DNA of 64,000 nt from Pseudomonas phage PhiPA3, in the sequence record HQ630627.1, one strand, 5' to 3'. The number at the start of each line of letters is the position of its first letter. Within the stretch, counting starts at the first letter, position 1. The notes beneath the pieces were generated by a model. It was not told the origin of the DNA and ran no database searches. It saw only the letters and a list, made by a program, of their open reading frames with translations. Below are positions 5,135 to 62,532 of this stretch, piece by piece. Both the position numbers and the translations under genes were made by a program.

Positions 5135-5163
5135 GCCCTCTCCCGAAGGAGAGGGCTTATGCC
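5135..5163. terminator. bidirectional hairpin terminator (stem GCCCTCTCC, loop CGAA) plus TTATGCC
   Basis: Perfect 9-bp GC stem between convergent genes. Confidence 0.6.
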
Positions 5164-5164
5164 G

Positions 5165-5575
5165 TCACACCTGTTCCCGACGTTCTCTCATGCAGAACTG
5201 CATCAGCTGTTTGAGGTCTTCTATAAACACACATTCGTCCGTGTACAGAAGCCAGCACGGGGTCTTCCGCGCAATGCGTTTATAGAACTTCTCGGAGGTG
5301 AGATCGTTTTTGTCGATCGGAAGAATGCCCTTCCACAGATAAGGCCCAAACAGGGTCGGAAGTCGAAGCGCACTCTCGTCACGAACCAAGCGCATCGTCG
5401 AATTAAGTCTTGCAATCCGAGAACACTCATGGTCACGACATTGCACTAAAGCAGCATGCAATGACGCCATCACACACAGCCGCTTGAGATCATCATCCAC
5501 ACGATTCCAAAAGAATAGCCATAATCCTTCGGCAACTTTGCGGACGGGTCTCATGATTCTGTTTGTAATGCTCAT
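5165..5575 (-). CDS. hypothetical protein (136 aa)
   Basis: ORF track. Ends at the convergent terminator. An antisense + ORF (5042..5449) also exists. Confidence 0.45.
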   Translation of the reverse strand: MSITNRIMRPVRKVAEGLWLFFWNRVDDDLKRLCVMASLHAALVQCRDHECSRIARLNSTMRLVRDESALRLPTLFGPYLWKGILPIDKNDLTSEKFYKRIARKTPCWLLYTDECVFIEDLKQLMQFCMRERREQV

Positions 5576-5586
5576 GGGTTACCCTA

Positions 5587-7059
5587 CTATTTCGGTAAAA
5601 TGAACTGCGTATAGGGAGAGCAGTAGATCGCAGCTCCACCCTCTGCTACAAACACAGTTGAGTATGAATAGGCTAACGGTCCATTCGCAACGATCAGAAG
5701 TTCAACCTTAACCCCGTCACACGATACCCGATTGAGTTGATTCCGTGAAGGAATGTCTTGCGCTAAGACCAACTTGATCTTAACCTTACGTCCTTTGTAA
5801 TCAATCGGAATATCGAGATGCGAGGTGTTCTGGGTAATAGTCTTCTTCAGTTGAGTGACCGTCTTCTTACCGGCCTGTACAGTCTCGTAGAAACTGTCGG
5901 TAATGTCGATTTTGCCAACCGACTCTCCAAGGGTACCAGCCAAGTAATCCGTCAAACGGCGTTCAAGAATATTGAATTCTCCAACTGCCTCGTTAGACAT
6001 CCTGGGTGGATTGAGAGTCCGACTAATCAACGCCATTTCTGGTGTTGACAGCACGCGGATATCATCGTGACGCATGAGTCCAGACAAACCCATAGATTCA
6101 ATCCGTTGACGCTGTTTGGCACTAAAGCAGTTGGCCAGGTTTAGAATACCCAGCTCGGGCATATCACTCCCGTAGGCTTCAGTGTGGATTTTAATCAACT
6201 CTTCAATGTACTCTTCAGCTTCATTGGCTTTGTAGACACCGAAGGTTGCCTCAGAAATCCTTCGTCCAAGTAAAAGATCTGATTTAGCAAGTTTATCTTT
6301 GGCCGTGTCCTTTGGCCGCAGGCCAGCATTATGCATTCGTCCAAGATTATACATGTAGTAGAACCCATCATGGGGCTTACCACTGTTAATCATGAACAGC
6401 AACCGAGACTCCATGATCAACGGACTCACCGGCTTCTTTTTCAATTTGTTGATGGCGTCGCCTTCAACTACTACCTGCACAGGCTCTGCCGTTTTAGACC
6501 CACCCCCCCTCAAGGCGTTTATATCTGCCTTGTCATTGCCCATGTCGCCGGAGTGACCCTCTACCCAAGTCATCTCCAATTTACGACCACCATTAATCCA
6601 CGCATCGCGTTGACTGATGAGATCCAACCAGAGTTCTTTGTTGGGCACTGGAGTACCATCTGGTTTAATCCAGTTGTTTTTAATCCATTTGGGTGACCAT
6701 TGCGTCAGTCCTTTGCGCACGTACTCACTGTCGAGCAACATGGTCAACTGTTTAGCTGGGGTACCAAGGGCGATTTTAAAGCCATTGATGGCAGCGCTAA
6801 GTTCTGCCGTGTTATTGGTCGGGCGATCAACGACCTTACCAAATGCATCGATATAGTCGATCACTGTACAAGTGTCTTCGACGCCAACATCCTTATAGCC
6901 TTTCGCCGTAGGTTGTTGTTTGGTTGCAGCCTTTGACTTCATCGGTGTGTCGGTGTAGGTATACCCGTGCACGCCCCAACCTGCTACGTTCTGACGAAAC
7001 GACCCGTCAGTATATAGCACAATACCATCACACATTGAATGTTCCTCTGTCGTTTCCAT
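5587..7059 (-). CDS. RNase HI-domain fusion protein (N-terminal RNase H, roughly 300-aa unknown C-terminal domain)
   Basis: The N-terminal 190 aa align motif by motif to E. coli RNase HI: 'IVLYTDGS', 'TNNTAELSAAINGF', 'LLDSEYVRKGLTQW...PVPNKELWLDL', 'WVEGHSGDMGNDKADINA'. These include the DEDD catalytic residues. Confidence 0.8.
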   Translation of the reverse strand: METTEEHSMCDGIVLYTDGSFRQNVAGWGVHGYTYTDTPMKSKAATKQQPTAKGYKDVGVEDTCTVIDYIDAFGKVVDRPTNNTAELSAAINGFKIALGTPAKQLTMLLDSEYVRKGLTQWSPKWIKNNWIKPDGTPVPNKELWLDLISQRDAWINGGRKLEMTWVEGHSGDMGNDKADINALRGGGSKTAEPVQVVVEGDAINKLKKKPVSPLIMESRLLFMINSGKPHDGFYYMYNLGRMHNAGLRPKDTAKDKLAKSDLLLGRRISEATFGVYKANEAEEYIEELIKIHTEAYGSDMPELGILNLANCFSAKQRQRIESMGLSGLMRHDDIRVLSTPEMALISRTLNPPRMSNEAVGEFNILERRLTDYLAGTLGESVGKIDITDSFYETVQAGKKTVTQLKKTITQNTSHLDIPIDYKGRKVKIKLVLAQDIPSRNQLNRVSCDGVKVELLIVANGPLAYSYSTVFVAEGGAAIYCSPYTQFILPK

Positions 7060-7086
7060 ACCACACTAGATAATTATCCTACCGGG

Positions 7087-7506
7087 TTATTTCTGTCGAC
7101 AGCTGTCCAACCACGACCTGTGGGCTTGCTCAATTTTGGACCGTTCGGAAGCAATGTATGTTCGCAGAGAATTCGCATAGGCAGATATCATTTTGTCAAC
7201 CTCAGCATCATTAATGGCTAATTCGAGGTCTTCTTCAGATGGCTGCTTAGGTACTTTCCCCGCTGGGGGAAGGTCAAACGGGCCACAATCAGCTAACAGA
7301 CGCTGAGCACTTGAATGTGGTTTGTTTGTTTGTCCCCGCTGTGTTACCGCATTCGTCGTTGTGGTCACGGTCGAATGGTTATCGACCGCCGAAGCGGCAT
7401 AGTGAATCACTGTCTCCTGACTGTTGTAGGTTGGTGCATACAGTACACAACCTGAGAGAGTGATACAAAGTGCTAACAGTAGGTTTTTGGACATGTGATC
7501 CACCAA
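7087..7506 (-). CDS. candidate o-spanin (outer-membrane lipoprotein, 139 aa)
   Basis: Signal peptide with lipobox 'ITLSG|C'. Pro-rich periplasmic segment 'PFDLPPAGKVPKQP'. Lies immediately downstream of a membrane/coiled-coil protein. Confidence 0.5.
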   Translation of the reverse strand: MVDHMSKNLLLALCITLSGCVLYAPTYNSQETVIHYAASAVDNHSTVTTTTNAVTQRGQTNKPHSSAQRLLADCGPFDLPPAGKVPKQPSEEDLELAINDAEVDKMISAYANSLRTYIASERSKIEQAHRSWLDSCRQK

Positions 7507-7517
7507 TCCTTACGGTA

Positions 7518-7808
7518 TTATTTCAGAAGTTCGCCAAGGGCTTTACGACGAGCTTTAAGGGCAGCGTCTTTGTCTAGTGTCGGACAGACTTGGGCGAGTT
7601 GCTTTTTAAGGGCAACATTCTCTGATCTGACTTCGTCCAACTCGCTAACAGTCATGATGAAGCTGAGTAGCAGGATCACCACTACCGCAAACATGAAGGT
7701 AACGTGTTTGTTTTCCAGCATCACTTCTTTTATCGTACGGTCTCCAAATACCGCACGCTTCAGGAAGGGCCAAATGAGGAGCAAGGCTTTAATAGTTACA
7801 CCGACCAT
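7518..7808 (-). CDS. candidate i-spanin or holin-like membrane protein (96 aa)
   Basis: SD 'AGAGGT' 5 nt before ATG 7808. Hydrophobic segment 'FMFAVVVILLLSFIMTV' followed by a coiled-coil-like tail 'SELDEVRSENVALKKQLAQ...KARRKALGELLK'. Ends 11 nt before the lipoprotein gene. Confidence 0.4.
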   Translation of the reverse strand: MVGVTIKALLLIWPFLKRAVFGDRTIKEVMLENKHVTFMFAVVVILLLSFIMTVSELDEVRSENVALKKQLAQVCPTLDKDAALKARRKALGELLK

Positions 7809-8006
7809 GATTACCTCTGTCGTTGATTAACTACGCCTACCCATACAAGCCTAAAGGCTAGAACAATAGACATACTGACAGCATATCTCTGCGGGTTATG
7901 TGTAGCATTTCCGCAGTAGTATACCCGACGTTTTTCAAGTTCACAAGCGTAAGTGACAAATTTTATAGATGGTAACCCATCCAAGCTCCGCTCATGAGGA
8001 AAGCAC

Positions 8007-9320
8007 ATGTACATTCTGAAAGGCTTTTACAGCTATCCAGCGTTAATCTCTAACGTTCCGGATGTTGTTGCTAAGTTTGGAGAACTCTCCAGCAATAGCT
8101 CAACCTATGCAAAAGACAAGACCATCCACACCGGTACGTCCACACCCAACACTTGTTTTATTTCTTTTCATAGCGTAAAGGATGAAACCACTGTTGTAGA
8201 TTTGACAGGTAATATGAAAGACCAAGTCTTGAAGATTGGTGAGTTCATTTATCAGCAATCTATTCAAGGTACAATTCGCGATAACCCTGACGTTCTGCGT
8301 CAGTTGGTTATGGCTGAGTTCGGTACTAAGATCAGTACGTTCACGTCTGGTCGTATGCTGACCAACAACACCATTTGGATGCCGGAATACGTTAAGTTTA
8401 CCGTCATCGAAGCTAATAACCCGAACGAAGTCACTATTTGGCTGTGCGATGAGTCCTTCGCTGCTCAGTACGATGAGTACGAGATCGAGATCGTTCACCC
8501 GCTGGTTCCGTATGACCAATTCTTCCAAGACCCGCTGATTGTTAAGCAATTGCTGGAAGCTTATGATCTCCCAGCTAAGCTGGAAGAAGTTCAGGCAGCG
8601 CGAGGGGATTACCCGTACACATTCCTGAAGGCGTTCATGTTTGCTTATCACAATCCCCGTGATACCACGATGCAGTTCCCTGCACACTGGATTGCGATCG
8701 TTTATGGTCAAGCGGGTAACAACCCCGATTTGATCAAAGACAAGATTGTGAAGGAAATCCTGGAGGGTTCTACCCATCCAAGAGAAGAATGGGAAGTAAT
8801 TCTTCCTGATCTGTTTCTGACCACCGAGTATATTTTCACTCCGTTCTGGAACCAATACTCCGTTCCAAACAGTGATTTCCGAGCAGGGATTTATAGCCCA
8901 ACGGTAGATCCGCGTAAACGGGTTGCTCTGCTGCGTCGTACCGCTCGTGGTTCGGGTTACACGGATGTGTGGGTAAACAACAACTATGAATTGTCTGCCA
9001 ACATCTACAAGTCGATTGCCTTTGGTGCAATTGGTAACCCGAAGAATCGCGGAGGTATCACAAAGTTCAGTCAGAAATGGCCGGACTACATGATCGTATC
9101 GAACGATTCGCCAGATATCGATCGGATGTCTCCAGATACTGTCGCTTGGACCATGTTGTTTAGTAAGTTGCTGAAGGCTGCTGAGGCCATGACTTTGTAC
9201 ACTTCTGTACCGGCTGGTGTTTCTCGAATGGTACGCGATGGCGTCATCTACGCCAGCGCCTACTATAAGAACGTGAACTACATGGTCGTGTCTAAGGCTT
9301 CGGTTGAGCAATTTGGTTGA
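8007..9320 (+). CDS. hypothetical (probably structural) protein, 437 aa
   Basis: ORF followed by hairpin terminator 9331-9358. Antisense ORF 8100..9323 has shadow-like R/S/L-rich composition. Confidence 0.6.
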   Translation: MYILKGFYSYPALISNVPDVVAKFGELSSNSSTYAKDKTIHTGTSTPNTCFISFHSVKDETTVVDLTGNMKDQVLKIGEFIYQQSIQGTIRDNPDVLRQLVMAEFGTKISTFTSGRMLTNNTIWMPEYVKFTVIEANNPNEVTIWLCDESFAAQYDEYEIEIVHPLVPYDQFFQDPLIVKQLLEAYDLPAKLEEVQAARGDYPYTFLKAFMFAYHNPRDTTMQFPAHWIAIVYGQAGNNPDLIKDKIVKEILEGSTHPREEWEVILPDLFLTTEYIFTPFWNQYSVPNSDFRAGIYSPTVDPRKRVALLRRTARGSGYTDVWVNNNYELSANIYKSIAFGAIGNPKNRGGITKFSQKWPDYMIVSNDSPDIDRMSPDTVAWTMLFSKLLKAAEAMTLYTSVPAGVSRMVRDGVIYASAYYKNVNYMVVSKASVEQFG

Positions 9321-9330
9321 CATTATAAAG

Positions 9331-9358
9331 GAGAGGGTTTCGACCCTCTCCTTTTATT
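9331..9358 (+). terminator. intrinsic terminator (GAGAGGGT-TTCG-ACCCTCTC + CTTTTATT)
   Basis: GC stem, UUCG loop, T-rich tail. Confidence 0.55.
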
Positions 9359-9369
9359 AGCTTAAGGTA

Positions 9370-10335
9370 TTGACAATGCGTCGCATCACTTTGAAGCTAG
9401 CAGACAATCCCATCGGCGCTAACCCCCTTGTGGGGCTATACAAGGCCATTACTGCCACGTACGCTAATCTGGGCTTGACTCAAGCAAACTCCGCTGTAAT
9501 CAAAATACAGCCAGCCGCAACACTGGAAGAACCCAATTTAACGATTGTCGTTGTTCGTAAGGATAATGATCCTAACAAAGACTACGAATTCTTTTACAAT
9601 CGTTTCAACATTAATACCTACATCAACAACCCTTACTGGACTGAAGCCGAGGTTCCAGTTGTCCAAGCTATCAACAACTCGAAAGAACTGTTGGCTAAGA
9701 TTGCTACTAAGTCAACCCTTAATCTAACTGAGAAAGATGTTTGGGTAAATATAGCCTCGATCGACTATGCAGGGGGTACGATTACACCCAACTGGTTAAT
9801 GACATGCATCTCTAACTCAGTGTACTTCACAGGTAAATTGATCCTGTGGTTGCATGGTGGCGGTGGTCCAGGTCCTGACCCGGAACCAGGTGATGGTGAT
9901 TATTCTCAGATGTTCCCGGCTTTGTTCTTAAAGCCAGTTCAAACGGGTGTAATTGAAACGTTCATAACCTACACCTATCCTGTTCCGACGTATGCTGAAG
10001 CTATTGGTCGTACTCTGGTATATCTACCGCCTCCGGCAAACAACTGGACGCTAGACGATGACACTGATGAAAACGGAGTCATACTGCCAAATACGTCTAA
10101 TGGTAATGCTGCTACTGTAAAGGCAGGTATGGAATATCGTATTGCCAACCGGAACACGGCTACTTTACGTCTGAGAGTTGACTACAATAACGACTTCCTG
10201 AAGGAAGGCCCGTCAATGATCAGATTTGTTCAACTTGGTCCATGGCAGCGTACTCGTGCTGTGTGTTATGAAAATACCGGCATTGCACCTAAGTGGACAC
10301 TGATAGGCGGTCACCGCACCGTGCCGTGGACGTAA
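9370..10335 (+). CDS. hypothetical protein (321 aa) with Gly/Pro/Asp-rich linker 'GGGGPGPDPEPGDGD'
   Basis: ORF track. Confidence 0.6.
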   Translation: MTMRRITLKLADNPIGANPLVGLYKAITATYANLGLTQANSAVIKIQPAATLEEPNLTIVVVRKDNDPNKDYEFFYNRFNINTYINNPYWTEAEVPVVQAINNSKELLAKIATKSTLNLTEKDVWVNIASIDYAGGTITPNWLMTCISNSVYFTGKLILWLHGGGGPGPDPEPGDGDYSQMFPALFLKPVQTGVIETFITYTYPVPTYAEAIGRTLVYLPPPANNWTLDDDTDENGVILPNTSNGNAATVKAGMEYRIANRNTATLRLRVDYNNDFLKEGPSMIRFVQLGPWQRTRAVCYENTGIAPKWTLIGGHRTVPWT

Positions 10336-10736
10336 TGGAATTCTGTCAGTTCTACCCAGCCGTTAAGAAAATAACCATTAATGAAACCACCATGAAATAT
10401 ACGGCGGTTTCTGGGGATTGTGTAAGCCATCTGTTCTTTACACATGCATCGTTTGATCCAGACAACGTAAGTGGCGAACGGTTTGATGTGGATATCCCTG
10501 CGAGTATTTTAGATCTGTCTCAGGGCGATTACAATTTCACGGTAATAAACAAAACAAATTATCGTTTGTGGGTGAAGTTGTACCAACCACAATGGACACT
10601 TGATTACTACCCCACGACGTTGGTGAGCATTAGGCCAGCCACCTCAGTAGAATTCAAGATGGTTCGTAATCCCCACAATGAAAAATCGTACTGGCTAGTT
10701 TTGGGCGAAGCTAGCAGGGAGTATGACGATGAGTAA
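10335..10736 (+). CDS. hypothetical protein (about 133 aa)
   Basis: TAATG stop/start overlap with the upstream gene (start MEFCQFYPAVKK...). The track's longer version overlaps by 43 nt. Confidence 0.5.
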   Translation: MEFCQFYPAVKKITINETTMKYTAVSGDCVSHLFFTHASFDPDNVSGERFDVDIPASILDLSQGDYNFTVINKTNYRLWVKLYQPQWTLDYYPTTLVSIRPATSVEFKMVRNPHNEKSYWLVLGEASREYDDE

Positions 10737-11202
10737 CGATTATTCACAGTGCACGAACTGGATACAATCTGTTCCAAATGTCTTAATCAATGCATACCCT
10801 GAACGAGGGCGCCATCCGAATCATGCGCCTGAAATTATGGCCTATGCAATGGTCAATCCGAAAGAACTCAAACTGCATGACGCTTTTTTAGTTTTTAGGT
10901 TGCCAGCCAATATTGATTGGGACGGATATAATTGGTTTGGTGCCGTATTGGCGTATGACCCCTCTTTACCCAATGGGTTCCATATGCGAATTGTTTTCGA
11001 TGCTCCCGAAGAAGAGAACCCCGAAGCGGGTGAGATTAACATCTACTACGAGAACGCAACGGAAGACTTCGCAACTCCATTGGGTCTTGACGGTACACGG
11101 ATTGTGAATCGTGACGTATGGGACTTGTACGTGGAACGGGAAGATGGCTCTACGTCGGGTGATTATCGATTAGTTGCTTATGATCCGGGTTATTCGTGGT
11201 AA
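10723..11202 (+). CDS. hypothetical protein (159 aa)
   Basis: ORF track. Hairpin terminator 11208-11238 follows. Confidence 0.5.
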   Translation: MTMSNDYSQCTNWIQSVPNVLINAYPERGRHPNHAPEIMAYAMVNPKELKLHDAFLVFRLPANIDWDGYNWFGAVLAYDPSLPNGFHMRIVFDAPEEENPEAGEINIYYENATEDFATPLGLDGTRIVNRDVWDLYVEREDGSTSGDYRLVAYDPGYSW

Positions 11203-11207
11203 CCATA

Positions 11208-11238
11208 ATGGCGGGGAATCAATAAGATTCCCCGCCAT
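11208..11238 (+). terminator. hairpin terminator (GGCGGGGAATC-AATAA-GATTCCCCGCC)
   Basis: 11-bp stem after the 159-aa gene. Confidence 0.5.
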
Positions 11239-11288
11239 TAAAGGAACTATTGAACCCAATCAGATGACAACCAATTCGAGAACCCGCC

Positions 11289-11921
11289 ATGGCTGATAAC
11301 ACAACCATTCTTGTCCCGCCGCCTAATACAAAAGGCCTATACACGCTGTACGCTCCGTTTGATCAGCAGATGGTACCAAATGAACTGTACACTTGTGCAG
11401 CCATCCGGCGTTTCGAGGACATTGAAAATAATGGTCGTAATGTCTTCTCTGTTTATTACGAACCGTTTGGTCTGACCGAACAACAGTGTCAGTCAGACCG
11501 TGCAGCAGGGCACTTTATCGTTACTCTGCTCTCCACCAAATATCCACCCCTGTACGTACCGACGAGCTTTATCAAGTCGTATCCTAACTTGAACTCGAAG
11601 CAGTACAATCAGGTTATTCTTACTCTGTCGCTAGGTCCTCTTCCGGATGATGTCATTTTAGACTCCGCTATGGATGCGGCAGCCAATGCCGTTAGTGACT
11701 TCCTCGGTGTTACTCCGGAAGTACACATCGGTATCATGCCGCTATCGGATGCAGTTACTCCTGAGCAGCATGAAACCCGTGAGGCGAATCGTTTGGCAGC
11801 TATTGCCAACAGAACCACAGATTACGCCCGTCTCGCTGAAGAACAAGCCAAGAACGCACAACTCTCTCAACGCCTAGCGATTGCCGAGAAAATGCTGAAG
11901 GATAACGGCTTACTCCCTTGA
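11289..11921 (+). CDS. hypothetical protein (210 aa)
   Basis: ORF track. Confidence 0.55.
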   Translation: MADNTTILVPPPNTKGLYTLYAPFDQQMVPNELYTCAAIRRFEDIENNGRNVFSVYYEPFGLTEQQCQSDRAAGHFIVTLLSTKYPPLYVPTSFIKSYPNLNSKQYNQVILTLSLGPLPDDVILDSAMDAAANAVSDFLGVTPEVHIGIMPLSDAVTPEQHETREANRLAAIANRTTDYARLAEEQAKNAQLSQRLAIAEKMLKDNGLLP

Positions 11922-11969
11922 CAACCTTATGTAGTTTCAAACCTCGATATCCCCTTAGTGGAGCTCAAA

Positions 11970-13712
11970 ATGGCCCGTGTTAAACTGTTTCAAATGATCA
12001 ATGCGATCTCAATGGAAGACGTCGAGAAAGCTAACGACGCAAACGTAGAAGTTGAAGGTAAGAAAGACCTCGAACCGCAACTCAAAGGCGATGAAGGTGA
12101 GAAGCCTAACGCAGATGACGTTGATGCCGCTGTTACCAATACCCAAACTACCGAACCGGGTCCGTCCGAAGGCGGTGGCGACGGTACCGCTCAGACTGTT
12201 GACGTGAATCACGTTGAGTCCAGCGATAAAGTAGAAAACCATGTTAAGCCCGTTGACCAAGCCAACAATGGCGAAGGTGACGACGCTCCGGAAAAAGTCA
12301 ATGCTGACGACGATAATGTCGCCACCACTACTTCCGTAGAAGAACATGATAACGACGGTCTGCAAACCATCGAGTCTGGTGAAACCGAATGTGTCGGTGA
12401 AGCGGATGACCTGGTTATGGACATCGAAGAAGTCACCAATGACGTAGATGCTTCCGGTATTACTGAAGCCATCGATTCCAAGTCGGATGCCGTTCAGGGT
12501 ATCGTTGAAGAAATCCGCGAAATGGAAAACGTTGAAGCGGCCGTAGAATCTTACCTGGGCGTTCTGCGTGGCATGCGTAACCGTGGCACCGAGATTTCCC
12601 CGGAACTGCAAGAGACCATGCGCATCGGTCTGGAAGCCATGGATTCGACCTTCTTCAAAGGCTCTGTGGTTTCTGTTGAAGACATCGATGATGGTGAAGG
12701 TCACAAGACTGCTCGTGACGCTACTGAAAGCAAACTGTCGGCTAAAGCTAAGCAGATCTGGGAAGCTCTGAAGCGTGCCTTTATGCGTGCTCTGGCTGCT
12801 CTGCAAGACGTATTCGTTTCCGTCATGAATAACGCCGGCAAACTGAAAGAACGTCTGGGTAAGCTGCGCTCGGAAGTTAACGTTCTTGAAGGTGGTAAAG
12901 AAGTCAAAGTTGCCAACGCCATGGGTCTGTCCATGAATGGCGAGTGGGTAGGTGACTCAGATCAAGGTCTGAAGAACATTCGTCGTACCGCTGACGAAGC
13001 CCTGCTGAACTTCCCCAGCAAACTGGCTGATGGTCTAGTTGCACTGAATCGTCGTTATCGCGACAAAACTCAGGAAGGCATCGAAGCCTACGAAGAAGCC
13101 ATCAACTCGGTTATCAAGATCTACAACCAGTCCTTCACCAGCTTCAAGTCCAGCAATGCTCGTGGTGAAATCACCGATATTGACACCAGTCGCTACAACC
13201 GTATCCTGCTTGGTCCAGTAATGCCGGGTAACCGTGTTCTGGCAGTAGCTTTCAGTTCCACGAAGACTGAAAGCGGCGGTTCTGCTGTCGGTGACACTGA
13301 AGCCAAGAACCTCACCAGCGTGATCAAAGAGAAGCTCGCTACCCTGAACAGTGAAGCCTACTCCGGTACTGTGAAAACCCCGAGTGCTTCTGAAGCACGC
13401 GCTGTTGTTGCTGCTCTGGAAGGTATCGTGGATAGCGTACTGGCTCGTAACGAAGGTCGTACTTCACTCAAGAAGCTGGCTAACATGGTTCAGGGCATCG
13501 CTCAAAACCGTAATGAGAATCCGAGTGCTATGGCCAAAACTCAAGGTGGTCATTGGGTTGACCAGATTGCTATCTCGGTAGCTCGTCGCGCCCTGGAAAC
13601 CAACCACGAGTTGATCGCATACATCATGCGCACCATCAAGACCTACATTGGCTTCCTGGAAGCCAGTATCAAGGCCGAAGCTGGTGGTGAAACCATCAAC
13701 CAAACTGCTTAA
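11970..13712 (+). CDS. hypothetical virion protein with strongly acidic N-terminal 170 aa
   Basis: ATG 11970 with GGAG 6 nt upstream (the track starts at GTG 11958). 'TTATGTA' motif at 11929-11935. D/E-rich N-terminus. Confidence 0.6.
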   Translation: MARVKLFQMINAISMEDVEKANDANVEVEGKKDLEPQLKGDEGEKPNADDVDAAVTNTQTTEPGPSEGGGDGTAQTVDVNHVESSDKVENHVKPVDQANNGEGDDAPEKVNADDDNVATTTSVEEHDNDGLQTIESGETECVGEADDLVMDIEEVTNDVDASGITEAIDSKSDAVQGIVEEIREMENVEAAVESYLGVLRGMRNRGTEISPELQETMRIGLEAMDSTFFKGSVVSVEDIDDGEGHKTARDATESKLSAKAKQIWEALKRAFMRALAALQDVFVSVMNNAGKLKERLGKLRSEVNVLEGGKEVKVANAMGLSMNGEWVGDSDQGLKNIRRTADEALLNFPSKLADGLVALNRRYRDKTQEGIEAYEEAINSVIKIYNQSFTSFKSSNARGEITDIDTSRYNRILLGPVMPGNRVLAVAFSSTKTESGGSAVGDTEAKNLTSVIKEKLATLNSEAYSGTVKTPSASEARAVVAALEGIVDSVLARNEGRTSLKKLANMVQGIAQNRNENPSAMAKTQGGHWVDQIAISVARRALETNHELIAYIMRTIKTYIGFLEASIKAEAGGETINQTA

Positions 13713-13721
13713 GGAACTACC

Positions 13722-53566: not shown

Positions 53567-53567
53567 A

Positions 53568-53615
53568 CATAATAGCCCTCTCCCGAAGGAGAGGGCGTTA
53601 TGCCATTATTTTTTT
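53568..53615 (+). terminator. module ACATAAT-[GCCCTCTCC-CGAA-GGAGAGGGC]-GTTATGCC plus T-run
   Basis: Same stem sequence as 5135 and 25931 (repeat family). Confidence 0.55.
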
Positions 53616-53652
53616 ACTTGTTTCGTCACCTTATGTACCCAAGGAGAATTTA

Positions 53653-54389: not shown

Positions 54390-54415
54390 GCCTCCCCTCG
54401 GGGAGGCTCTATGCC
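54390..54415 (+). terminator. hairpin (GCCTCCC-CTCG-GGGAGGC) plus TCTATGCC
   Basis: After the membrane-protein gene. Confidence 0.5.
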
Positions 54416-54423
54416 GCTATTCT

Positions 54424-54945
54424 ATGAATCAACGGCACTTTGGGGGACACATGCCTCTTACCTGTACCAAAGTCCCAGAGATAGACCAATTTGTAACCGA
54501 AGGGAAGCATATCGGCTATTTCGGAAAAGAGGACAATATAACCGACCTGCCGTCTGTGATTGGCGATTGGAATATCCGAGCGATCTATGATCGGGTGAAC
54601 CCCACAACAGGATACATCGTTGCGGTTCCTTCGAATACACGTACCCGCGTTATTTATAATACTGGGCGTGCAAATTGGCTGCAATCACTCGGCTACACTA
54701 GTAAACAGGCTGACTTGTATATCAGGGCGAGCACTATCGTGAATGGTCGTTGGGACCATCGCGTTGCTGAATTTGTACTGAAACATTTCCACATGGACGA
54801 TTACGTCATTGAGGAAGTAATACAGAGCGATCGCCCTAAGAAAGTTTGCCAAGAAAACAACATTAATACCAAACTCTCAGCGCGTAAGATTTTGACAGCC
54901 TGTCAGATACTTTACAACATGCGCTTTACTCTGGTAGGGGCCTAG
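54424..54945 (+). CDS. hypothetical protein (173 aa)
   Basis: ORF track. Hairpin 54937-54950 follows. Confidence 0.5.
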   Translation: MNQRHFGGHMPLTCTKVPEIDQFVTEGKHIGYFGKEDNITDLPSVIGDWNIRAIYDRVNPTTGYIVAVPSNTRTRVIYNTGRANWLQSLGYTSKQADLYIRASTIVNGRWDHRVAEFVLKHFHMDDYVIEEVIQSDRPKKVCQENNINTKLSARKILTACQILYNMRFTLVGA

Positions 54946-54960
54946 GCCCCTATTTATTTC
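54937..54960 (+). terminator. short hairpin (GGGGCC-TA-GGCCCC) plus TATTTATTTC
   Basis: After the 173-aa gene. Confidence 0.4.
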
Positions 54961-55004
54961 GTCGTACGCTATTCTATGACTTTAAATCGTAAAGGTTTGA
55001 CCCT

Positions 55005-56185: not shown

Positions 56186-56358
56186 GTTAAAAACTTACAC
56201 TTTCCCCAATGATATAGCCAAGGCAGTACGCGTAAGCGCTGCACATTAAGGGGGTGATCCAGCCAATACTTAACCTGATACGTTAAGGCATTTGCGGGAG
56301 CAAAAGCGAGTATCTAACTACGGCGCCTTGGACTAGCTTGGAGCATCGATTCAAGCGG

Positions 56359-56391
56359 CATAACAGCCCAGCTTCGGCTGGGCTTTATGTC
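56359..56391 (+). terminator. module GCATAAC-[GCCCAGC-TTCG-GCTGGGC]-TTTATGTC
   Basis: Inside the 260-bp non-coding region upstream of the helicase. Confidence 0.5.
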
Positions 56392-56446
56392 GTCTTACTC
56401 GGGAGCCAATCTTATGACTTTCTAAAATCCTGACGGAATCACTCAC

Positions 56447-59400
56447 ATGTTCGATACATTTCGCACGCTCTTCAGCGGACTAGACGTAAAAGAAACCGAC
56501 ACGGAGATTATCATCAGTGGTGTAGCTGCTAATGAGATCATTCGTGATATGGACAAGTTCTGGAAGACTACCAAGTTGACTGGGAACATGTTCAATAATG
56601 TCTCTCGTCGCTCGATGAGCTTCTATAAGTTCTTTGCTCCAGAAGTCATGTACATGCTGGAGAACATCAAACACTACCGGAATCGTTGGACGTCTATTAA
56701 GGCGATCAATGCGATTCGCGAAGCGTTGATGGAACATACCTGGTTAAAGGGTACCATTCCAGTTGATCCCAATACTGTACCTGGTCGTTTGGATCTACGT
56801 AAGCTCCAGAACTTACATTTTGACGCAATGACCTACCAGATGGAGTATTTCCAGAACTACTCCTATAGACTCGACCAATACGGTTTAAAAGGTGATCTGA
56901 TCGCAGCTGCTGCCGGCACAGGTAAAGCCCAGCCGCTAACTTCCATGGTCAAAGTACCGGGTGGTTGGAAAGCCATGGGTAATATTCAAGTAGGTGATGT
57001 TGTTACTGCTTGGGACGGTACTCCAACTAAGGTAACTGGCGTTTATCCGCAAGGAAAGAAACAAACCTTTACCGTCACCTTCAAAGACGGCCGGACCACC
57101 AAAGCCTGTGACGAGCACCTGTGGAATGTGTACTGCCAAGATTGGACCCGTTACGGTGGAACCGGGTGGCGCGTAATCAACACCTTGGAGTTATTCGGTC
57201 GTATCCAAAGCGGGAAACAACGGCTGTATGTGCAGTTGTGCAAATCCGAGGAAGGTATTGATGTAGAACTTCCCATTGATCCTTACAACCTGGGAGTTAT
57301 CCTTGGTGACGGATGCATCAGCTCAAACTGTGTGTCGGTGACTAGTGGTGACCCGCAGCTCTTCACAGAGTTCGCTAAAGCCCTTCCAGAAAATCTGGAA
57401 TTGATCACCCGTGATGACATCACGATGGGCGTAATCAACAAAAAGGGTGAACGTAATCCGTATACCAGTGCGTTGCGTGAGATGGGGCTACTTGGTGAGA
57501 ACTCACTGACTAAGTTCATCCCGCAAAACTACCTGATGGCGTCCACTGCACAGCGTTTGGCTTTGGTTCAGGGGCTGATGGACACCGATGGTACTGTTGA
57601 TGTTAACAGTAGCCTGAGTTTCTCGACCAGCAGTTACATGTTGGCCAAACAATTCCAGTATCTGATTCGTTCGCTAGGTGGAATCGCGAAGATCTCGTTC
57701 AAGGAGCCAACCTACACCTACAATGGTGTTAAACAGTACGGGAACATGTCGTACCGGGTACTTGTCCGCTTCGATGTGCCATCAGCTCTTTTCCGACTCG
57801 ACCGCAAGTTAGCACGGTGCAATGACAATCATCAGTACACGGAGAATCTTCGGTTGCAGATCAAGCATGTGAACGTGTCAGACCGGGTAGAGTGTCAATG
57901 CATTCAGGTAGAGCATCAGGACCACCTGTACGTTACCGATGATTTCATTGTGACGCACAACACCTACATGACTTCAGCCATTGCAGAAATGCGCAGTGCG
58001 GAGTTGATTGTTGTAATCTGCCCCAAACAAGCATTAGAAACCGTCTGGTTAGAATCTATCCCCGATATGTTCAAAGCCAAACAGAGCGTCTGGAGTTCAG
58101 CGAATAAACACGCTCCCTATAAAGGTGAGCGTTGGATTGTTTGCCACTACGACGCTATGGATCGACTGATCGAACTACTCCGTGATCAGCGAGTCTATAA
58201 AGGTAAACGGGTTGTAACTATCCTTGATGAATCCCACAACCTGAACGATCCAAACTCGGCTCGGTCTTTGTACTATCAGACCATCTGTAAGATCCTAGGT
58301 AGCGAAGACAATCTGTTTGCATCGGGTACACCGGTGAAAGCACTTGGCTCTGAACTAATCGGTTTACTGCGTGTGGTGGATGACATGTTCACACCAGCGG
58401 TAGAAGAACGGTTCCGCAAGATGTACGGTAAAGAAGCCAGTAAAGGTCTTGATATTATCCGTCATCGCTTGGGTCTAATGTCCTTTAAGGTGGAGAAGAA
58501 AGAAACTGGTCTCCAACCTCCGATCATGAAGCCGTATCCAATCAAGATCCCCAATGGGGAACTGTTCACGCTACCGATGATCAAAAAGGACATGGAGAAA
58601 TTCATCAATGAACGCTGGGCTTATTATAAGTCCCGTCGTCCGAATGATGAGAAACTCTGGAACCAGATGTTGGATATCCATCGCAAGTCACTCAAGACAC
58701 GCGATCAAGTCAAAGCCTTTGAAGACTACCTGCGTTTGGTAGAACTCGTTAAGCGTACTCCTGACCCTCGTTACATCGGTGAGGAAATCAAGGCAACGAA
58801 CGTTTACGAGAAGCGGATCTTTGAACCGACCCTTCCACGCACGATGATCCATCAGTTCCGTGACATCAAGTCCGTGATCAAATACACCAACCTTAAGATC
58901 CAAGGTGAATGCCTGGGTCGAGTGTTGGGTGGTAAACGGATTGAAGCGCACGTAGCGATGGTTCCGTATATCGATTGGGTGGGGATTGTTGAGTCTACTG
59001 AGAAGAAGACGATCATGTTCACAAGCTTCGTTGAAGCGGTGGAAGCGTCTGAAATTCACACTACTAAACTAGGGATGAAACCCACAGTTGTGTACGGTAA
59101 GACGACAGGGGATCTAGCAGGCATCGTTAAACGCTTCGATGAAAATAAGTCCATCAACCCATTGTTAGCAACCTTCGCTTCGCTATCTACAGCTGTACGC
59201 TTGACCATGGCTGACACCATGATCCTATTGAACTCTCCATTCCGTGCCTATATTCTGGAACAAGCCATCGCGCGTATCTATCGCATGGGTCAAGACTCGC
59301 AAACTTACGTCTACCAATGCACACTTGATACGGGGGAGGTTCCGAACATCTCTACGCGATCCGCTGACATCCTGGCGTGGTCTACTGCTCAAGTGGAAGC

Positions 59401-59617
59401 GATCATGGGTATCAAGTCTCCTCTGCAAATGGAGGATGCGGCCAGCTTTGAAAATCTAGCTGAAGAACTCAAGTACGATGAGAACCGAATCATGCATCGG
59501 ATTCTGGCTAATGCTTTCGAAGCGTATGGTATTGAAATTTCCCAAGAAGACTTCATTGTGAAGTCTGTTGTTAAACACAAACCTTTAGTGCCCGCATACA
59601 TGCGGTTCGGAGGATAA
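56447..59617 (+). CDS. SNF2-family (SF2) helicase interrupted by an intein (1,056-aa precursor; about 711-aa mature)
   Basis: Extein motifs: Walker A 'AAAGTGK/T' restored by intein removal, DExH 'ILDESHNL', motif III 'SGTP', SNF2 motif VI 'QAIARIYRMGQDSQTYVY'. Confidence 0.85.
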   Translation: MFDTFRTLFSGLDVKETDTEIIISGVAANEIIRDMDKFWKTTKLTGNMFNNVSRRSMSFYKFFAPEVMYMLENIKHYRNRWTSIKAINAIREALMEHTWLKGTIPVDPNTVPGRLDLRKLQNLHFDAMTYQMEYFQNYSYRLDQYGLKGDLIAAAAGTGKAQPLTSMVKVPGGWKAMGNIQVGDVVTAWDGTPTKVTGVYPQGKKQTFTVTFKDGRTTKACDEHLWNVYCQDWTRYGGTGWRVINTLELFGRIQSGKQRLYVQLCKSEEGIDVELPIDPYNLGVILGDGCISSNCVSVTSGDPQLFTEFAKALPENLELITRDDITMGVINKKGERNPYTSALREMGLLGENSLTKFIPQNYLMASTAQRLALVQGLMDTDGTVDVNSSLSFSTSSYMLAKQFQYLIRSLGGIAKISFKEPTYTYNGVKQYGNMSYRVLVRFDVPSALFRLDRKLARCNDNHQYTENLRLQIKHVNVSDRVECQCIQVEHQDHLYVTDDFIVTHNTYMTSAIAEMRSAELIVVICPKQALETVWLESIPDMFKAKQSVWSSANKHAPYKGERWIVCHYDAMDRLIELLRDQRVYKGKRVVTILDESHNLNDPNSARSLYYQTICKILGSEDNLFASGTPVKALGSELIGLLRVVDDMFTPAVEERFRKMYGKEASKGLDIIRHRLGLMSFKVEKKETGLQPPIMKPYPIKIPNGELFTLPMIKKDMEKFINERWAYYKSRRPNDEKLWNQMLDIHRKSLKTRDQVKAFEDYLRLVELVKRTPDPRYIGEEIKATNVYEKRIFEPTLPRTMIHQFRDIKSVIKYTNLKIQGECLGRVLGGKRIEAHVAMVPYIDWVGIVESTEKKTIMFTSFVEAVEASEIHTTKLGMKPTVVYGKTTGDLAGIVKRFDENKSINPLLATFASLSTAVRLTMADTMILLNSPFRAYILEQAIARIYRMGQDSQTYVYQCTLDTGEVPNISTRSADILAWSTAQVEAIMGIKSPLQMEDAASFENLAEELKYDENRIMHRILANAFEAYGIEISQEDFIVKSVVKHKPLVPAYMRFGG
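56927..57961 (+). mobile_element. Intein (345 aa) with LAGLIDADG homing endonuclease, inserted in the helicase P-loop between GTGK and T
   Basis: Block A-like 'AQPLTSMVKVPGGW..IQVGDVVTAWDG'. LAGLIDADG motifs 'LGVILGDGCIS' and 'LVQGLMDTDGTV'. C-terminal 'FIVTHN' followed by +1 Thr. The first residue is Ala rather than Cys/Ser. Confidence 0.8.
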
Positions 59618-59619
59618 TA

Positions 59620-60006
59620 ATGGCACGTTCTACAGCCGCAACAATGCTGGCAGCACTTCAGAAGTACTTTACTAAAGTTGAAGAGCGATTAGATAGTGGT
59701 GGCAGTGGTGGGGTGAATGCCCTGTATTTTGCAAATGGCTCTATTGCAGCCGGTGCTACCACTCAGAAAGATCTAACTACGATTACTGGTGCACCGACTG
59801 GCAAAGATTGGCGCTCGGCAATTGTGCAAGTACTGGTCAAAGATGTAACGGCCGGTTCCCCTACTCTAAACTGCTGGTTAGATGGTAGTGCATTATTCAC
59901 GTATGGCATTGATGAAGCTGGGGTATTCAAGATCACTAACTTGAGTACGACCGGACAACTCTACGCTGTCACCATTCTTGCCCCCTCTTCCGCTAAAATT
60001 GGTTAG
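59620..60006 (+). CDS. hypothetical protein (128 aa)
   Basis: ORF track. Starts 2 nt after the helicase stop. Confidence 0.5.
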   Translation: MARSTAATMLAALQKYFTKVEERLDSGGSGGVNALYFANGSIAAGATTQKDLTTITGAPTGKDWRSAIVQVLVKDVTAGSPTLNCWLDGSALFTYGIDEAGVFKITNLSTTGQLYAVTILAPSSAKIG

Positions 60007-60013
60007 GTGATGT

Positions 60014-62494
60014 ATGGTCTACGCCATTCCAGATAAAGCCGCAGGGAAATATGCATCGGCTCAAACGGTAAACTGGACGTTCGCCGCTGGCGTGGTAGGT
60101 TATACTTGGAACACCGGGGATACTCCCCCGGTGATTTCCGAGTATATTGCCTACGATAACCAGACTCCTCAGAATCCTTTCATTGCTGTTACTCAAGATG
60201 GTAGCGGTAAAGTGGTTTACGATGGCGGTTTCCCTAAGTGGTTAAACAATCAGTTAGGGTCAACTACAACCACTACACCGTTTGCTAATTTGACGATTGG
60301 TCAGAAATACTTCGTTAACGCGTTGAACTTCATCGCTAGTCCTGATCGACCTAAGAAAGTTCTATTCTTAGGAGATCGCCTGTTTACTAACAGTGGTGGA
60401 AGTTACCAGATTAAAGAAACGGCTCCTGGTGGATTCAAGACTTTCATTGAGACGCTTTCCGCCGTTGCTGGCTATATCCCCACTATCAAAGATTCGGGCG
60501 ATTATGGTGGTTCATCGCTTAATCCAACTTTAGTTGAGATGGACCAATACGCCGCCGTTGTGTTGGTAGCTACAGACACAACTAAAGTAGCTGGATGGTT
60601 CACTGCGAATGCTCTGTTAGATATCCAGACATATCGCCGTAATGGTGGTGGTATATTCATCATTACCGATGATGGTCCGGAGATTTCCGACATTGCTAAC
60701 GCATCACCGACTCCAACAAACGCTTTCTTCTGTACAGCCAACCAACTGGCGGTAAAGTTTAATTGCTGGTTCTCTGGTAATTACAACCGCACGCCTATCC
60801 TGGTCAGTGAACTAAAAGCTAATTACGGTGATCATCCGTTATGGCAGGGTATGGCCGATACAGATATGTTTCCAGCCGGTGGTTCAGAGTCACGTGTTTA
60901 CGTAAACTCGGTAGCACTGTCAGCTCCGTCTGCATTGGCTACGCCTATCGCCAGTTCAGCATTGACCAAAGTTAACTTCTTGGTAAAGTTGGCAGATGGA
61001 TCATTCCACACGGAGACATATGGCTATACCACAAATGGATCGGACATTGTCCAATACCTTAACCGAGCAGCCAACAACGTCGTGGTTACCGCCCTGGATA
61101 CGGGCGTAAACAATAGCGCGGCCCTAGACTTTAACATCACACATACCACATCAGGTACGTTGGTGGCGTATATTCGACGCTACAAAATTGATAGTCAGTC
61201 TGTAGTGAATGTGGGTGAGGTTCGATACGTTCCTGGACAAGGGACAGTAACATCCTGGTATGCCTATAATGGCATCGTTCCCGTTCGAAATGGTGATAAG
61301 ATCTATGTTGATTTTATCGCGCCGTTCGAATACCACTCGGAATTGCCCGTAACACGTTACATGCCTCCAATGCATGGTATCGTTAAGACACTAGCTGATG
61401 CAGCGAAATGGATTCGTCCACGCTATTCGACTGGTTCGTTAATATCGGTTATCCGTAGGGCTGTAGAAGAAGCCGCTGGTCAACACCCAGCTATGGGGAT
61501 GGATCAGTGGACAGGCACTGCTCAACATGTAATGGGTTTGGCCAATTTCTATGCTGATCTATTGGATCGTCCACGCACTCAGGCAGTAGCCTATTCGACA
61601 ACCGCAGCTATTACAGCAGCATTGCCGACTCTGACGCCTCCTGATGCATCAGCCATCTTTAACAAATGGGCACGTTTTTCTAACAATGCCTATTATCCGG
61701 CTGGCACTACCCCAGAAGGGGATGCCGCATCTTGGACATGGGATGACACGACTAAGCAGGCAATTCAGACAGTAAATTCGGGGACGTATAACGGTTTCTT
61801 GTCTGATGAAACTCCTATGGTGTGGACGTTAGATGTAACTCTCCAGAGTAACAACATTGACGATGATTTCAATGGTATCGTGATCTGTTTTGATCGCGAT
61901 GAATCAGCGGGTATCAACCGTACATTAAGTGTTGTTGTTAACCGTGGAGCTATGGGTTTTGGTACCCTACCACATCCATGGCCTAACTTAATGTTACTAA
62001 CGGGTTTCGAACGTGGCAATCCAGCACATGCTGAATGGAAAGTCTTCGGACAAAGTTCAGTGGGTGATCCAACTGATACATCAGGATGGAATGGTTCTTA
62101 TAGACGTCTGTTCATTTCCCGTCGAGCAGATCAGATAACCGTACAGGCATCTGATTGGAACTCTACGGTACTCAATAATGTTCACACCCTAACACTGGAC
62201 CTGACATCTGATCCCCTACTGGCTCGCTTTCGTGGACCTAAGAGGTACGGCTTGAGTAACCAAAGCCAACCTGATTCGTTTTTCAAGAACATCAACTATG
62301 TTGGTGAACTGCAACGAAATCTGGCATTGGACATGCAAGCGAACAAAGTTTACTTCTACACCAGTAATGGTTGGTTGTTATTGAACGGAGTACTCATCCA
62401 CGACCTCTATGGATGGCCTCGTACACTGGAATCTTCAGTGGATGGTTCTGTGTGGCACTTGAACCAAGATCGAACAATCACCCGCATTTCGTAA
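60014..62494 (+). CDS. large virion protein, possibly fiber or baseplate component (826 aa)
   Basis: Long ORF rich in T/N/G/S/Y. Bidirectional hairpin 62504-62524 follows. Confidence 0.6.
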   Translation: MVYAIPDKAAGKYASAQTVNWTFAAGVVGYTWNTGDTPPVISEYIAYDNQTPQNPFIAVTQDGSGKVVYDGGFPKWLNNQLGSTTTTTPFANLTIGQKYFVNALNFIASPDRPKKVLFLGDRLFTNSGGSYQIKETAPGGFKTFIETLSAVAGYIPTIKDSGDYGGSSLNPTLVEMDQYAAVVLVATDTTKVAGWFTANALLDIQTYRRNGGGIFIITDDGPEISDIANASPTPTNAFFCTANQLAVKFNCWFSGNYNRTPILVSELKANYGDHPLWQGMADTDMFPAGGSESRVYVNSVALSAPSALATPIASSALTKVNFLVKLADGSFHTETYGYTTNGSDIVQYLNRAANNVVVTALDTGVNNSAALDFNITHTTSGTLVAYIRRYKIDSQSVVNVGEVRYVPGQGTVTSWYAYNGIVPVRNGDKIYVDFIAPFEYHSELPVTRYMPPMHGIVKTLADAAKWIRPRYSTGSLISVIRRAVEEAAGQHPAMGMDQWTGTAQHVMGLANFYADLLDRPRTQAVAYSTTAAITAALPTLTPPDASAIFNKWARFSNNAYYPAGTTPEGDAASWTWDDTTKQAIQTVNSGTYNGFLSDETPMVWTLDVTLQSNNIDDDFNGIVICFDRDESAGINRTLSVVVNRGAMGFGTLPHPWPNLMLLTGFERGNPAHAEWKVFGQSSVGDPTDTSGWNGSYRRLFISRRADQITVQASDWNSTVLNNVHTLTLDLTSDPLLARFRGPKRYGLSNQSQPDSFFKNINYVGELQRNLALDMQANKVYFYTSNGWLLLNGVLIHDLYGWPRTLESSVDGSVWHLNQDRTITRIS

Positions 62495-62496
62495 CG

Positions 62497-62532
62497 ACAT
62501 AAGGCCCCTCCATTACGGAGGGGCTCTATGAC
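62497..62532. terminator. bidirectional module GACATAAG-[GCCCCTCC-ATTAC-GGAGGGGC]-TCTATGAC
   Basis: Between convergent structural genes. Confidence 0.6.

Follow-up and report, generated by a model that had tools for sequence, protein, structure and literature searches.

Palindromic TATG-tailed hairpin modules of Pseudomonas phage PhiPA3 as probable, largely bidirectional terminators of the phiKZ type

Comparison with the terminators of phiKZ and 201phi2-1

RNA 3′ ends have been mapped in phiKZ by ONT-cappable-seq, and 61 predicted intrinsic terminators of this phage have in common a stem-loop and, after it, TTAT; their consensus reads BCCYCCCCHWWDGGGRRGGBYTTATKYYGT (Putzeys et al. 2024, Microlife, PMC10914365). 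The 3′-end sequences in the accompanying supplement (10.1101/2023.10.13.562163) show a CATAA...TTATG palindrome, as in T071, AACAGCATAAGCCCTCTCC-CAAA-GGAGAGGGCATTATGTCGT. For phage 201phi2-1, a second study (Microb Biotechnol 2024, PMC11512511) describes two motifs: A (n = 59) is similar to that of phiKZ, and B, where it co-occurs with A, lengthens the hairpin, the two-motif terminators with elongated stems being the stronger ones. A Pseudomonas chlororaphis terminator trap, with a reporter on either side of the cloned element, served to test eight 201phi2-1 terminators, of which those with 3′ ends at 179,552 and 183,876 equaled or outperformed lambda T0 (PMC11512511). Here, we analyzed a window of 64,000 nucleotides (nt) from Pseudomonas phage PhiPA3 (HQ630627.1), in which 14 GC-rich hairpins are joined to a TATG word; we refer to these units as modules. 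The modules are very probably hairpin-dependent, intrinsic-type terminators of the kind mapped in phiKZ and 201phi2-1, largely bidirectional, and as such they are further instances of a terminator type already known from those phages. The evidence consists of their anatomy, their enrichment, their placement at gene junctions, their orthology to mapped 3′ ends, and compensatory changes in their stems.

As a whole, the unit forms an inverted repeat, ACRRCATAA-N-[stem-loop-stem]-N-TTATGYYGT, in which the mirror word upstream reverse-complements the tail. The GC stems of the 14 modules are 7 to 9 bp long, with core folding energies of -11 to -21 kcal/mol, and folding with the ±13 nt flanks gains another 2 to 14 kcal/mol via CAUAA:UUAUG pairing on one or both strands. 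A scan that was independent of previously listed sites (perfect pairing, a stem of at least 6 bp with at least 5 GC pairs, and a loop of 3 to 7 nt) returned 27 hairpins in the window. TATG stands at -3 to +4 nt from the stem end on 23 of their 54 flanks, against 1.05 expected (binomial P=2.5e-25), and nine hairpins have it on both strands. The word GGNNTTATGYYGT, with at most one mismatch, has 18 matches in the window versus 3.3±1.8 in shuffled sequences, none of 100 shuffles reaching 18. Hairpins of -12.9 kcal/mol or stronger precede 14 of the 32 TATGYYG words, and a fifteenth word follows one of -10.4 kcal/mol; the background rate of hairpins at -10 kcal/mol or stronger is 3.9%. After TATG, the 23 flanks have a pyrimidine at +1 in 21 cases and at +2 in all 23, G at +3 in 14, and T at +4 in 17. 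The invariant part of the tail is TTAT, and the G is frequent but not universal.

These counts agree with the initial annotation of the sequence, which had listed 13 such sites. A GC-rich hairpin is followed immediately by (T)TATG at all 13, and three stems are indeed identical (GCCCTCTCC at 5135, 25931, and 53575). Some of its details hold in part. The mirror word, said to precede most sites, is an exact CATAA at 8 of 13 and CATAT at one; it is partial at two (19111 and 23879), and none is clear at 25487 and 54390. TATG is followed by C/T and then C at 10 sites, the remaining three departing from this pattern. A UUCG loop had been given for most hairpins, which is half right: the loop is TTCG on the plus strand at 5 of 13 sites, and a further 2 have CGAA, which the opposite strand reads as TTCG. 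Our perfect-hairpin scan includes the listed sites other than 23901, which has one G·U pair in its stem. Absent from that list were the hairpin at 25136-25153, whose mirror gives TATG on the minus strand only, and T-rich variants of the TTTATTTCGT type at 9327, 44951, 52487, and 54935.

The tails in the window match the tail of the published phiKZ consensus, YTTATKYYGT, position by position. Since stem lengths vary, the rigid 30-nt consensus with up to three mismatches finds only 3 sites in the window, versus 0 in shuffles. Both sets have a GC-rich, pyrimidine-first stem (GCCYYCC..GGRRGGC) and a 4- to 6-nt loop, and both lie between genes, after gene ends and at syntenic junctions, with bidirectional pairs where genes converge. 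They differ in that the window has more G at the K position and has TTCG loops more often than the ATTAC/GTAAT loops seen in phiKZ. The published phiKZ consensus lacks the upstream mirror word, though the published -60..+40 sequences show it; motif B of 201phi2-1 may correspond to this CATAA word.

Gene order in the window follows phiKZ gp147 to gp203 nearly gene for gene, as judged by synteny comparison. We applied an equal hairpin finder to the syntenic 50 kb of phiKZ, PA1C, 201phi2-1, and Phabio, and modules recur at equivalent gene junctions. Eight hairpins of the window lie at junctions orthologous to mapped phiKZ 3′ ends: 5135, between the gp153 and gp154 homologues (T070 on the minus and T071 on the plus strand); 9327, after gp157 (T074); 14911, between gp163 and gp163.1 (T076); 21509, between gp168 and gp169 (a hairpin with T081 on the minus strand); 44951, after gp181 (T087); 48428, after gp184 (T088); 52487, after gp189 (T090); and 56365, after gp200 (the pair T092/T093). 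At six orthologous junctions compared among the five phages, the stems vary at 4 to 6 positions and each is perfectly paired in its own genome, while the flanking words are unchanged. Paired stems that persist despite sequence change, next to fixed flanks, point to a conserved structure joined to a conserved tail sequence. An alignment of 20 orthologous modules with MAFFT and RNAalifold had given no consensus structure, the 5′ arms being misaligned, and the comparison was anchored on the stems instead.

Three of the tested 201phi2-1 3′ ends (179,552, 183,876, and 189,851) fall in the compared stretch. They lie 8 nt past module stems at positions 14925-45, 19252-69, and 25229-44 of the 201phi2-1 stretch, and the first of them, active in vivo, belongs to the orthologue of the PhiPA3 hairpin at 14911. 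The loss of reporter signal together with the 8-nt spacing indicates that these elements terminate a bacterial polymerase in vivo at intrinsic-type spacing. In phiKZ, the plus-strand 3′ ends T071 and T076 are also 8 nt past the stem, with a method resolution of about 2 nt. RNA 3′ ends or termination have been shown in this way for orthologues in phiKZ and 201phi2-1; that the modules terminate transcription in PhiPA3, and which polymerase responds to them, we infer from the sequence. The earlier suggestion of a termination signal without a canonical U-tract is borne out by the fit to the phiKZ motif, the orthologous 3′ ends, and the 201phi2-1 trap; its assignment to the phage RNA polymerase (RNAP) is another matter, as the trap used the host polymerase.

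Placement along the window is that expected of terminators. After a few antisense calls of open reading frames (ORFs) were corrected, there are 5 convergent, 5 divergent, and 56 co-directional junctions, and modules occupy 5/5, 0/5, and 9/56 of them, respectively (Fisher's test, convergent versus divergent, p=0.008). At every convergent junction the module is two-sided, with a tail on each strand. Presence at every convergent and no divergent junction argues for terminator rather than promoter placement.

According to the mechanism that we propose, the RNA would fold into a GC-rich stem, often with a UUCG or GNRA tetraloop, and the polymerase would release the transcript about 8 nt past the stem, within an AU-rich UUAUG-Y-Y-G tail that stands in for the U-tract. 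The upstream (ACRR)CATAA would give transcription from the opposite strand its own tail, making the terminator bidirectional, and in the RNA it could pair with UUAUG and lengthen the stem by 4 to 9 pairs. Many one-directional phiKZ terminators, in our own reading of the published sequences, keep the upstream CATAA even without a downstream G. Antisense tails and mirror words at one-directional sites may accordingly extend the stem, block antisense transcription, or both. Within a site, the variable positions of mirror and tail are all Y/Y, and every combination leaves a G·U on one strand. Bacterial bidirectional intrinsic terminators share with the modules the GC hairpin, release about 8 nt past the stem, and activity with host RNAP in vivo; in both, a complement of the tail upstream of the hairpin acts for the other strand and can lengthen the stem. 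Unlike bacterial intrinsic terminators, however, the modules have a UUAUG-YYG tail with no run of U, and this tail is conserved across phages of different host genera.

Several observations weigh against the terminator reading. The minus-strand 3′ ends of phiKZ lie just 2 to 5 nt past the stem, and ONT-cappable-seq 3′ ends alone cannot tell termination from 3′ trimming to a protective hairpin. Most tails fail the U-tract rule (at least 5 T in 8), and a generic terminator scan of positions 1-20000 catches two of the three TATG modules there (5135 and 14911), its total being 16 matches against a shuffle expectation of 15.6. In half of the co-directional modules, the antisense strand, on which no gene ends, also has a complete tail. 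Finally, the strong G-Y-Y-G conservation past UUAU exceeds what a simple weak-hybrid model needs.

Two observations concern the surroundings of the modules. The upstream gene often has its TAA stop codon at a fixed distance of 8 to 10 nt before the stem, where it forms part of the palindrome's outer border (TAACGRCATAA reverse-complements TTATGYCGTTA), as seen at 14898-14910, 48415-48427, and 62492-62503 and at the mirror positions; two convergent genes thus end in mirror fashion on either side of the hairpin. Between 118 and 250 kb of phiKZ, the hairpin-type 3′ ends have a TATG tail in 8 of 8 cases on the minus strand, whereas the plus strand has 8 TATG and 28 T-rich tails (classified by hand); TATG tails thus cluster at convergent, bidirectional junctions.

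The tail as a possible polymerase signal

The tail may do more than stand in for a U-tract. TATG-Y-Y-G could be a sequence-specific pause or release signal for the phage multisubunit RNAPs, one that replaces the U-tract by holding the enzyme 8 nt past the hairpin and is possibly read via the beta-lobe pocket that recognizes non-template TATG at late promoters. We consider this tentative and rather doubtful; it would refine the terminator reading, not replace it. The same tail is found, beside purine-first stems of quite another sequence, in two distant chimalliviruses that infect other hosts but have phage polymerases in common. In Ralstonia phage RP31, whose SbcC is 28% identical to that of the window, it stands on 14 of 30 hairpin flanks (P=1e-17), with G at +3 in 12 of the 14 (for example, GCCAGGAGGG-gaaa-CCCTCCTGGC-TCTTATGCCGT). 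In Erwinia phage Deimos-Minion, it occurs on 6 of 20 flanks (P=1e-6), CC-G follows in five of the six, and most of the modules have the tail on the sense strand alone. Conservation of the tail across host genera, with stems that drift, suggests a phage-encoded reader, for which one of the two phage RNAPs is a candidate, and GP123 binds non-template TATG sequence-specifically. In phiKZ, none of five transcription units with early, virion RNAP (vRNAP) promoters ends at a TATG-type tail, versus 9 of 19 with late promoters, a contrast that is not significant (p=0.12) and was drawn from partial tables by nearest-promoter assignment and hand classification of tails.

Other results sit poorly with a dedicated phage reader. 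The 201phi2-1 modules terminate the host polymerase efficiently in uninfected P. chlororaphis, where no phage enzyme is needed; a unit of the window that apparently starts at the early-type box at 18582 ends at the TATG-type module at 19111; T replaces the G in many mapped phiKZ terminators; and the tail signal is weak in Aeromonas phage PS1. Multisubunit polymerases share a general elemental pause consensus, G-10/Y-1/G+1, which would act on host and phage enzymes alike. The predicted 3′ end of the modules, ...UUAUGYC followed by G, with GG about 10 to 11 nt upstream in the stem, resembles it. T7 RNAP, a single-subunit enzyme, pauses and terminates sequence-specifically, without a hairpin, at the class II signal ATCTGTT; the likeness to the module tails is one of analogy only, a conserved short word contributing to pausing or release.

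A literature search found no in vitro termination data for vRNAP or for the non-virion RNAP (nvRNAP) and no paper linking a terminator tail to recognition by a phage polymerase, and a search for the tail as a literal word matched solely a polymerase chain reaction primer from the Klebsiella chimallivirus Miami. If the tail were such a signal, late transcripts would start and end at one and the same four-base word, and the conservation of the tail among Pseudomonas, Ralstonia, and Erwinia chimalliviruses while stems change would be explained. The identity of the tail to the nvRNAP promoter core, beside unrelated stems in phages of three host genera, bears on a question posed in the phiKZ polymerase papers, namely, what nvRNAP recognizes beyond TATG. 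We also considered ChmC, a nucleus-associated RNA-binding protein, as a reader of the modules; it binds near start codons and has no reported binding motif, which leaves no link.

Separate promoter boxes and other readings of the palindrome

The initial annotation had offered as one possibility that a terminator and a late promoter are coupled in a single TATG. In such a composite, each module would end one transcript, and nvRNAP would start the next at that spot. Late promoters of phiKZ need a TATG core whose G is +1, and eight co-directional modules have a sense TATG 11 to 62 nt before the next start codon, with no other promoter-like box found in the spacers of 19111, 25487, and 54390. In phiKZ, P049 starts about 5 nt past a terminator TATG, on an overlapping second TATG. 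Yet a promoter at a convergent junction would make antisense RNA only, and modules sit at all convergent junctions but at no divergent one. In the part of the phiKZ transcription-start table that runs from P008 to P126, no late-class start falls on a hairpin-adjacent TATG; the closest five lie on a second TATG past the terminator, at about 5 nt (P049), 10 (P075), 20 (P054), about 25 (P016), and 42 nt (P078). In that same part, late starts are followed by A in 8 cases, T in 4, G in 3, and C in none (a hand count on those -50..+1 strings that run past the G), whereas YYG follows the terminator TATG. The model late promoter p119L has no hairpin, and orthologous hairpin-less promoters exist separately. 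The composite is therefore decidedly unlikely, and the hairpin-adjacent TATG, by comparison with phiKZ, is probably not a late transcription start.

Divergent junctions instead carry conserved TATG boxes without a hairpin. The initial annotation had pointed to this word upstream of late genes, and the sites hold up as a distinct class of signal. The box GAGAGTAATTTTATG at 4103-4120 (+; TATG site 4115) lies 41 nt before the start of the gp153 homologue and equals the box of phiKZ P083, which the supplement of 10.1101/2023.10.13.562163 marks as validated by Ceyssens 2014. The box AACAACCTTATGTAG at 11920-11934 (+; site 11929), before the gp162 homologue, equals that of P088; here, AACAACCTTATG is conserved in the window, phiKZ, PA1C, and 201phi2-1 and is weaker in Phabio. 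At the divergent junction before the gp181 homologue, AACGATATGACTGTTTA occupies 37948-37964 (+; site 37953); there, AACGATATGA is conserved in all five Pseudomonas chimalliviruses, and no phiKZ transcription start is listed at this position. From their sequence and conservation, the hairpin-less boxes would form a separate class of late promoters. Late promoters of phiKZ (TATG with G as +1; Yakunina 2015; nvRNAP-p119L structures) share with the modules the same four-base word only: p119L, P083, and P088 lack the hairpin that the modules have, and such promoters lie at divergent junctions or directly upstream of genes, without a following YYG.

Promoter boxes also occur just downstream of terminators. 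A second TATGAC or TATGTA box stands 14 to 36 nt past the tail TATG of three modules and one T-rich hairpin: TGTATGACC after 23879 (TATG at 23916, 34 nt before the start of the gp174 homologue); CCTTATGTA after 53575 (53630-53638, before a likely start at 53653); CTTATGACTTT after 56365 (TATG at 56413, 31 nt before the next start); and TCTATGAC after 54935 (TATG at 54975), the last being one of the hairpin-less sites pointed out before. Early-promoter-like boxes, TATATTAC, are present at 18582-18589, 20305-20312, and 48474-48481, and a related box, TATATCAC, at 25179-25186. TATATTAC is the core of the phiKZ early (vRNAP) promoter, which these AT-rich boxes match. Those at 20305, 25179, and 48474 sit 25 to 30 nt downstream of the modules at 20257, 25136, and 48428, and the box at 48474 aligns with phiKZ early promoter P099, itself preceded by T088. 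The intergenic layout pairs terminators with promoters, but the two signals are distinct, and the present results separate terminators from late-promoter boxes that share TATG and are easily confused with them.

If the polymerase read through the modules, their hairpins could still define RNA 3′ ends, either by stopping an exonuclease or through an endonuclease cut in the AU-rich tail. Very stable tetraloop hairpins protect 3′ ends well, cappable-seq does not separate release from trimming, and the minus-strand ends of phiKZ lie nearer the stem than 8 nt. Such a processing or stabilizing role as the main function is nonetheless decidedly unlikely, given that the downstream reporter signal is lost in the 201phi2-1 traps, that the three tested 3′ ends fall exactly 8 nt past the stem, as is typical of intrinsic termination, and that the tail is conserved beyond the needs of a roadblock. 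A role for the palindrome at the DNA level with an incidental RNA hairpin, be it as a mobile repeat like repetitive extragenic palindromes or miniature inverted-repeat transposable elements (REP/MITE) or as a binding or cleavage site for a dimeric protein, has very little to recommend it: inverted repeats close to perfect over as much as about 45 bp, the identity of three stems, half-sites that both fit one consensus, an inverted gp201-203 block bounded by two modules, and an encoded SbcC-like protein would suit it, but placement follows gene ends, stems vary freely between orthologous sites while pairing is kept, which indicates a constraint on RNA or structure, the tail of some modules is present on the transcribed strand only (19111, 23879, 54390, and most Deimos-Minion sites), and a recently mobile repeat is largely refuted by synteny in five phages at 44 to 57% protein identity with stems diverging through compensatory changes.

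Individual modules, T-rich variants, and neighboring genes

The two-sided modules at convergent junctions are as follows. At 5125-5165, the hairpin (5135-5156) reads GCCCTCTCC/CGAA/GGAGAGGGC, with tails TTATGCCGT (+) and AATATGTTGT (-), between the gp153 and gp154 homologues. The module at 14900-14940 has the hairpin GCCCCTCC/TTCG/GGAGGGGC at 14911-14930 and the tails GTTATGTTAT (+) and TATTATGCCGT (-), between the gp163 and gp163.1 homologues. At 21500-21540, where the gp168 and gp169 homologues converge, the hairpin at 21509-21530 is followed by AATATGTCGT on the plus strand and TTATGCCGA on the minus strand. The module at 25921-25962, with the hairpin GCCCTCTCC/TTCG/GGAGAGGGC at 25931-25952 and tails GATTATGCTT (+) and TTTATGTTCT (-), lies where the head-protease (gp175) homologue and its neighbor converge, and a hairpin lies at the equivalent junction in phiKZ, PA1C, 201phi2-1, and Phabio. 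The last, at 62494-62534, has its hairpin at 62504-62524 and the tails TCTATGACAT (+) and CTTATGTCGT (-).

Five other modules have sequences recorded for both tails. At 20247-20285, the hairpin (20257-20276) has tails TTATGTCTA (+) and GTTATGCCGT (-); at 25125-25162, the hairpin (25136-25153) has GTTTATGTTGT on the minus strand and TTTATATTT, without the G, on the plus strand; and at 48417-48455, the hairpin (48428-48445) has TTTATGCCAT (+) and ATTTATGTCGT (-). The module at 53565-53606 again has GCCCTCTCC/CGAA/GGAGAGGGC (53575-53596), with tails GTTATGCCAT (+) and TATTATGTTC (-), and that at 56355-56393 has a TTCG-loop hairpin (56365-56384) with tails TTATGTCGT (+) and GTTATGCCGC (-).

Plus-strand tails alone are recorded at four modules. 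At 19111-19137, a co-directional junction, a TTCG-loop hairpin (19111-19128) is followed by CTATGTCGT, and the upstream ORF's stop codon overlaps the base of the stem. The module at 23879-23909 has a hairpin with one G·U pair and a GAAA loop (23879-23900) and the tail TTATGCCTC. At 25487-25523, ATAAAA/TTTTAT extends the GC core (25493-25512) to a 13-bp stem, followed by TTTTATGCCGT, and at 54390-54417 the hairpin (54390-54407), which lacks a mirror word, has the tail TCTATGCCGC.

The T-rich variants are all on the plus strand. The one at 9327-9363, after the gp157 homologue, has a purine-first stem, AAAGGAGAGGGT/TTCG/ACCCTCTCCTTT, then TATTAG, so that TTTTAT is read across the stem end; four relatives have a like type at the equivalent junction. 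At 44951-44981, after the 2323-amino-acid (aa) gp181 homologue, the stem contains one G·U pair and the tail is TTATTTCGT, without G. The variant at 52487-52516 follows the gp189 homologue with the tail TTCTATTTTG, and that at 54935-54962 consists of TAGGGGC/CTAG/GCCCCTA and the tail TTTATTTCGT. For annotation, the gain is a map of transcription-unit ends, with 14 TATG-type and at least 4 T-rich terminators and predicted 3′ ends 8 nt past the stems.

The window comes from a Pseudomonas-type chimallivirus, a phiKZ-like jumbo phage. It encodes homologues of the phiKZ vRNAP beta subunits, an SbcC-like protein, a UvsX-like recombinase, RNase H, internal head proteins, and the 2323-aa tail protein (gp181 homologue). 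Its GC content is 47.5%, compared with 36.8% in phiKZ, and the SbcC-like protein is 57% identical to that of the phiPA3-like Pseudomonas aeruginosa phages PA1C and PS119XW, 55% to that of Phabio, 51% to that of 201phi2-1, and 44% to that of phiKZ. A near-identity DNA search of positions 14000-22000 against phage records gave a single 90-nt patch and nothing else, an exact 40-mer of the window has no match in IMG/VR, and a tRNA scan of the window found none.

Rfam gives a single gathering-level match in the window, to a group I intron (31716-32004; RF00028, 67.8 bits, E=4.8e-15), and none for the modules. This intron separates the two parts, 32972-36262 and 30528-31784, of the gp178-homologous vRNAP beta gene (minus strand, 30528-36262). 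With it lies a 330-aa ORF (31961-32953), 31% identical to the phiKZ gp179 region and probably a homing endonuclease. In 201phi2-1, the gp178 homologue is annotated as interrupted by a mobile element. A hairpin of low stability (AAGGCG-gtcat-CGCCTT, -8 kcal/mol), with TTATGCCGTT after it, lies antisense within the intron-encoded ORF at 32662-32704 (+); it may represent a copy of the module that has degenerated or that blocks antisense transcription.

The block of gp203, gp202, and gp201 homologues (56447-62494) is on the plus strand in the window and on the minus strand in phiKZ (positions 203000-216000 compared), i.e., it is inverted, and it is flanked by two two-sided modules, with hairpins at 56365-56384 and 62504-62524; an orientation-independent terminator would keep working after such an inversion. 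Upstream of the gp161 homologue, positions 11206-11240 form a perfect 15-bp inverted repeat, TAATGGCGGGGAATC-aataa-GATTCCCCGCCATTA, of a class that differs from the modules, and phiKZ has another palindrome at this position, GCGGATC...GATCCGC, upstream of late promoter P087. About 180 nt (56186-56364) with no called ORF separate the gp200 homologue from the module at 56355-56393; with the module and its tail, this gap of 261 nt is unusually long for the genome and could harbor a small gene or a non-coding RNA.

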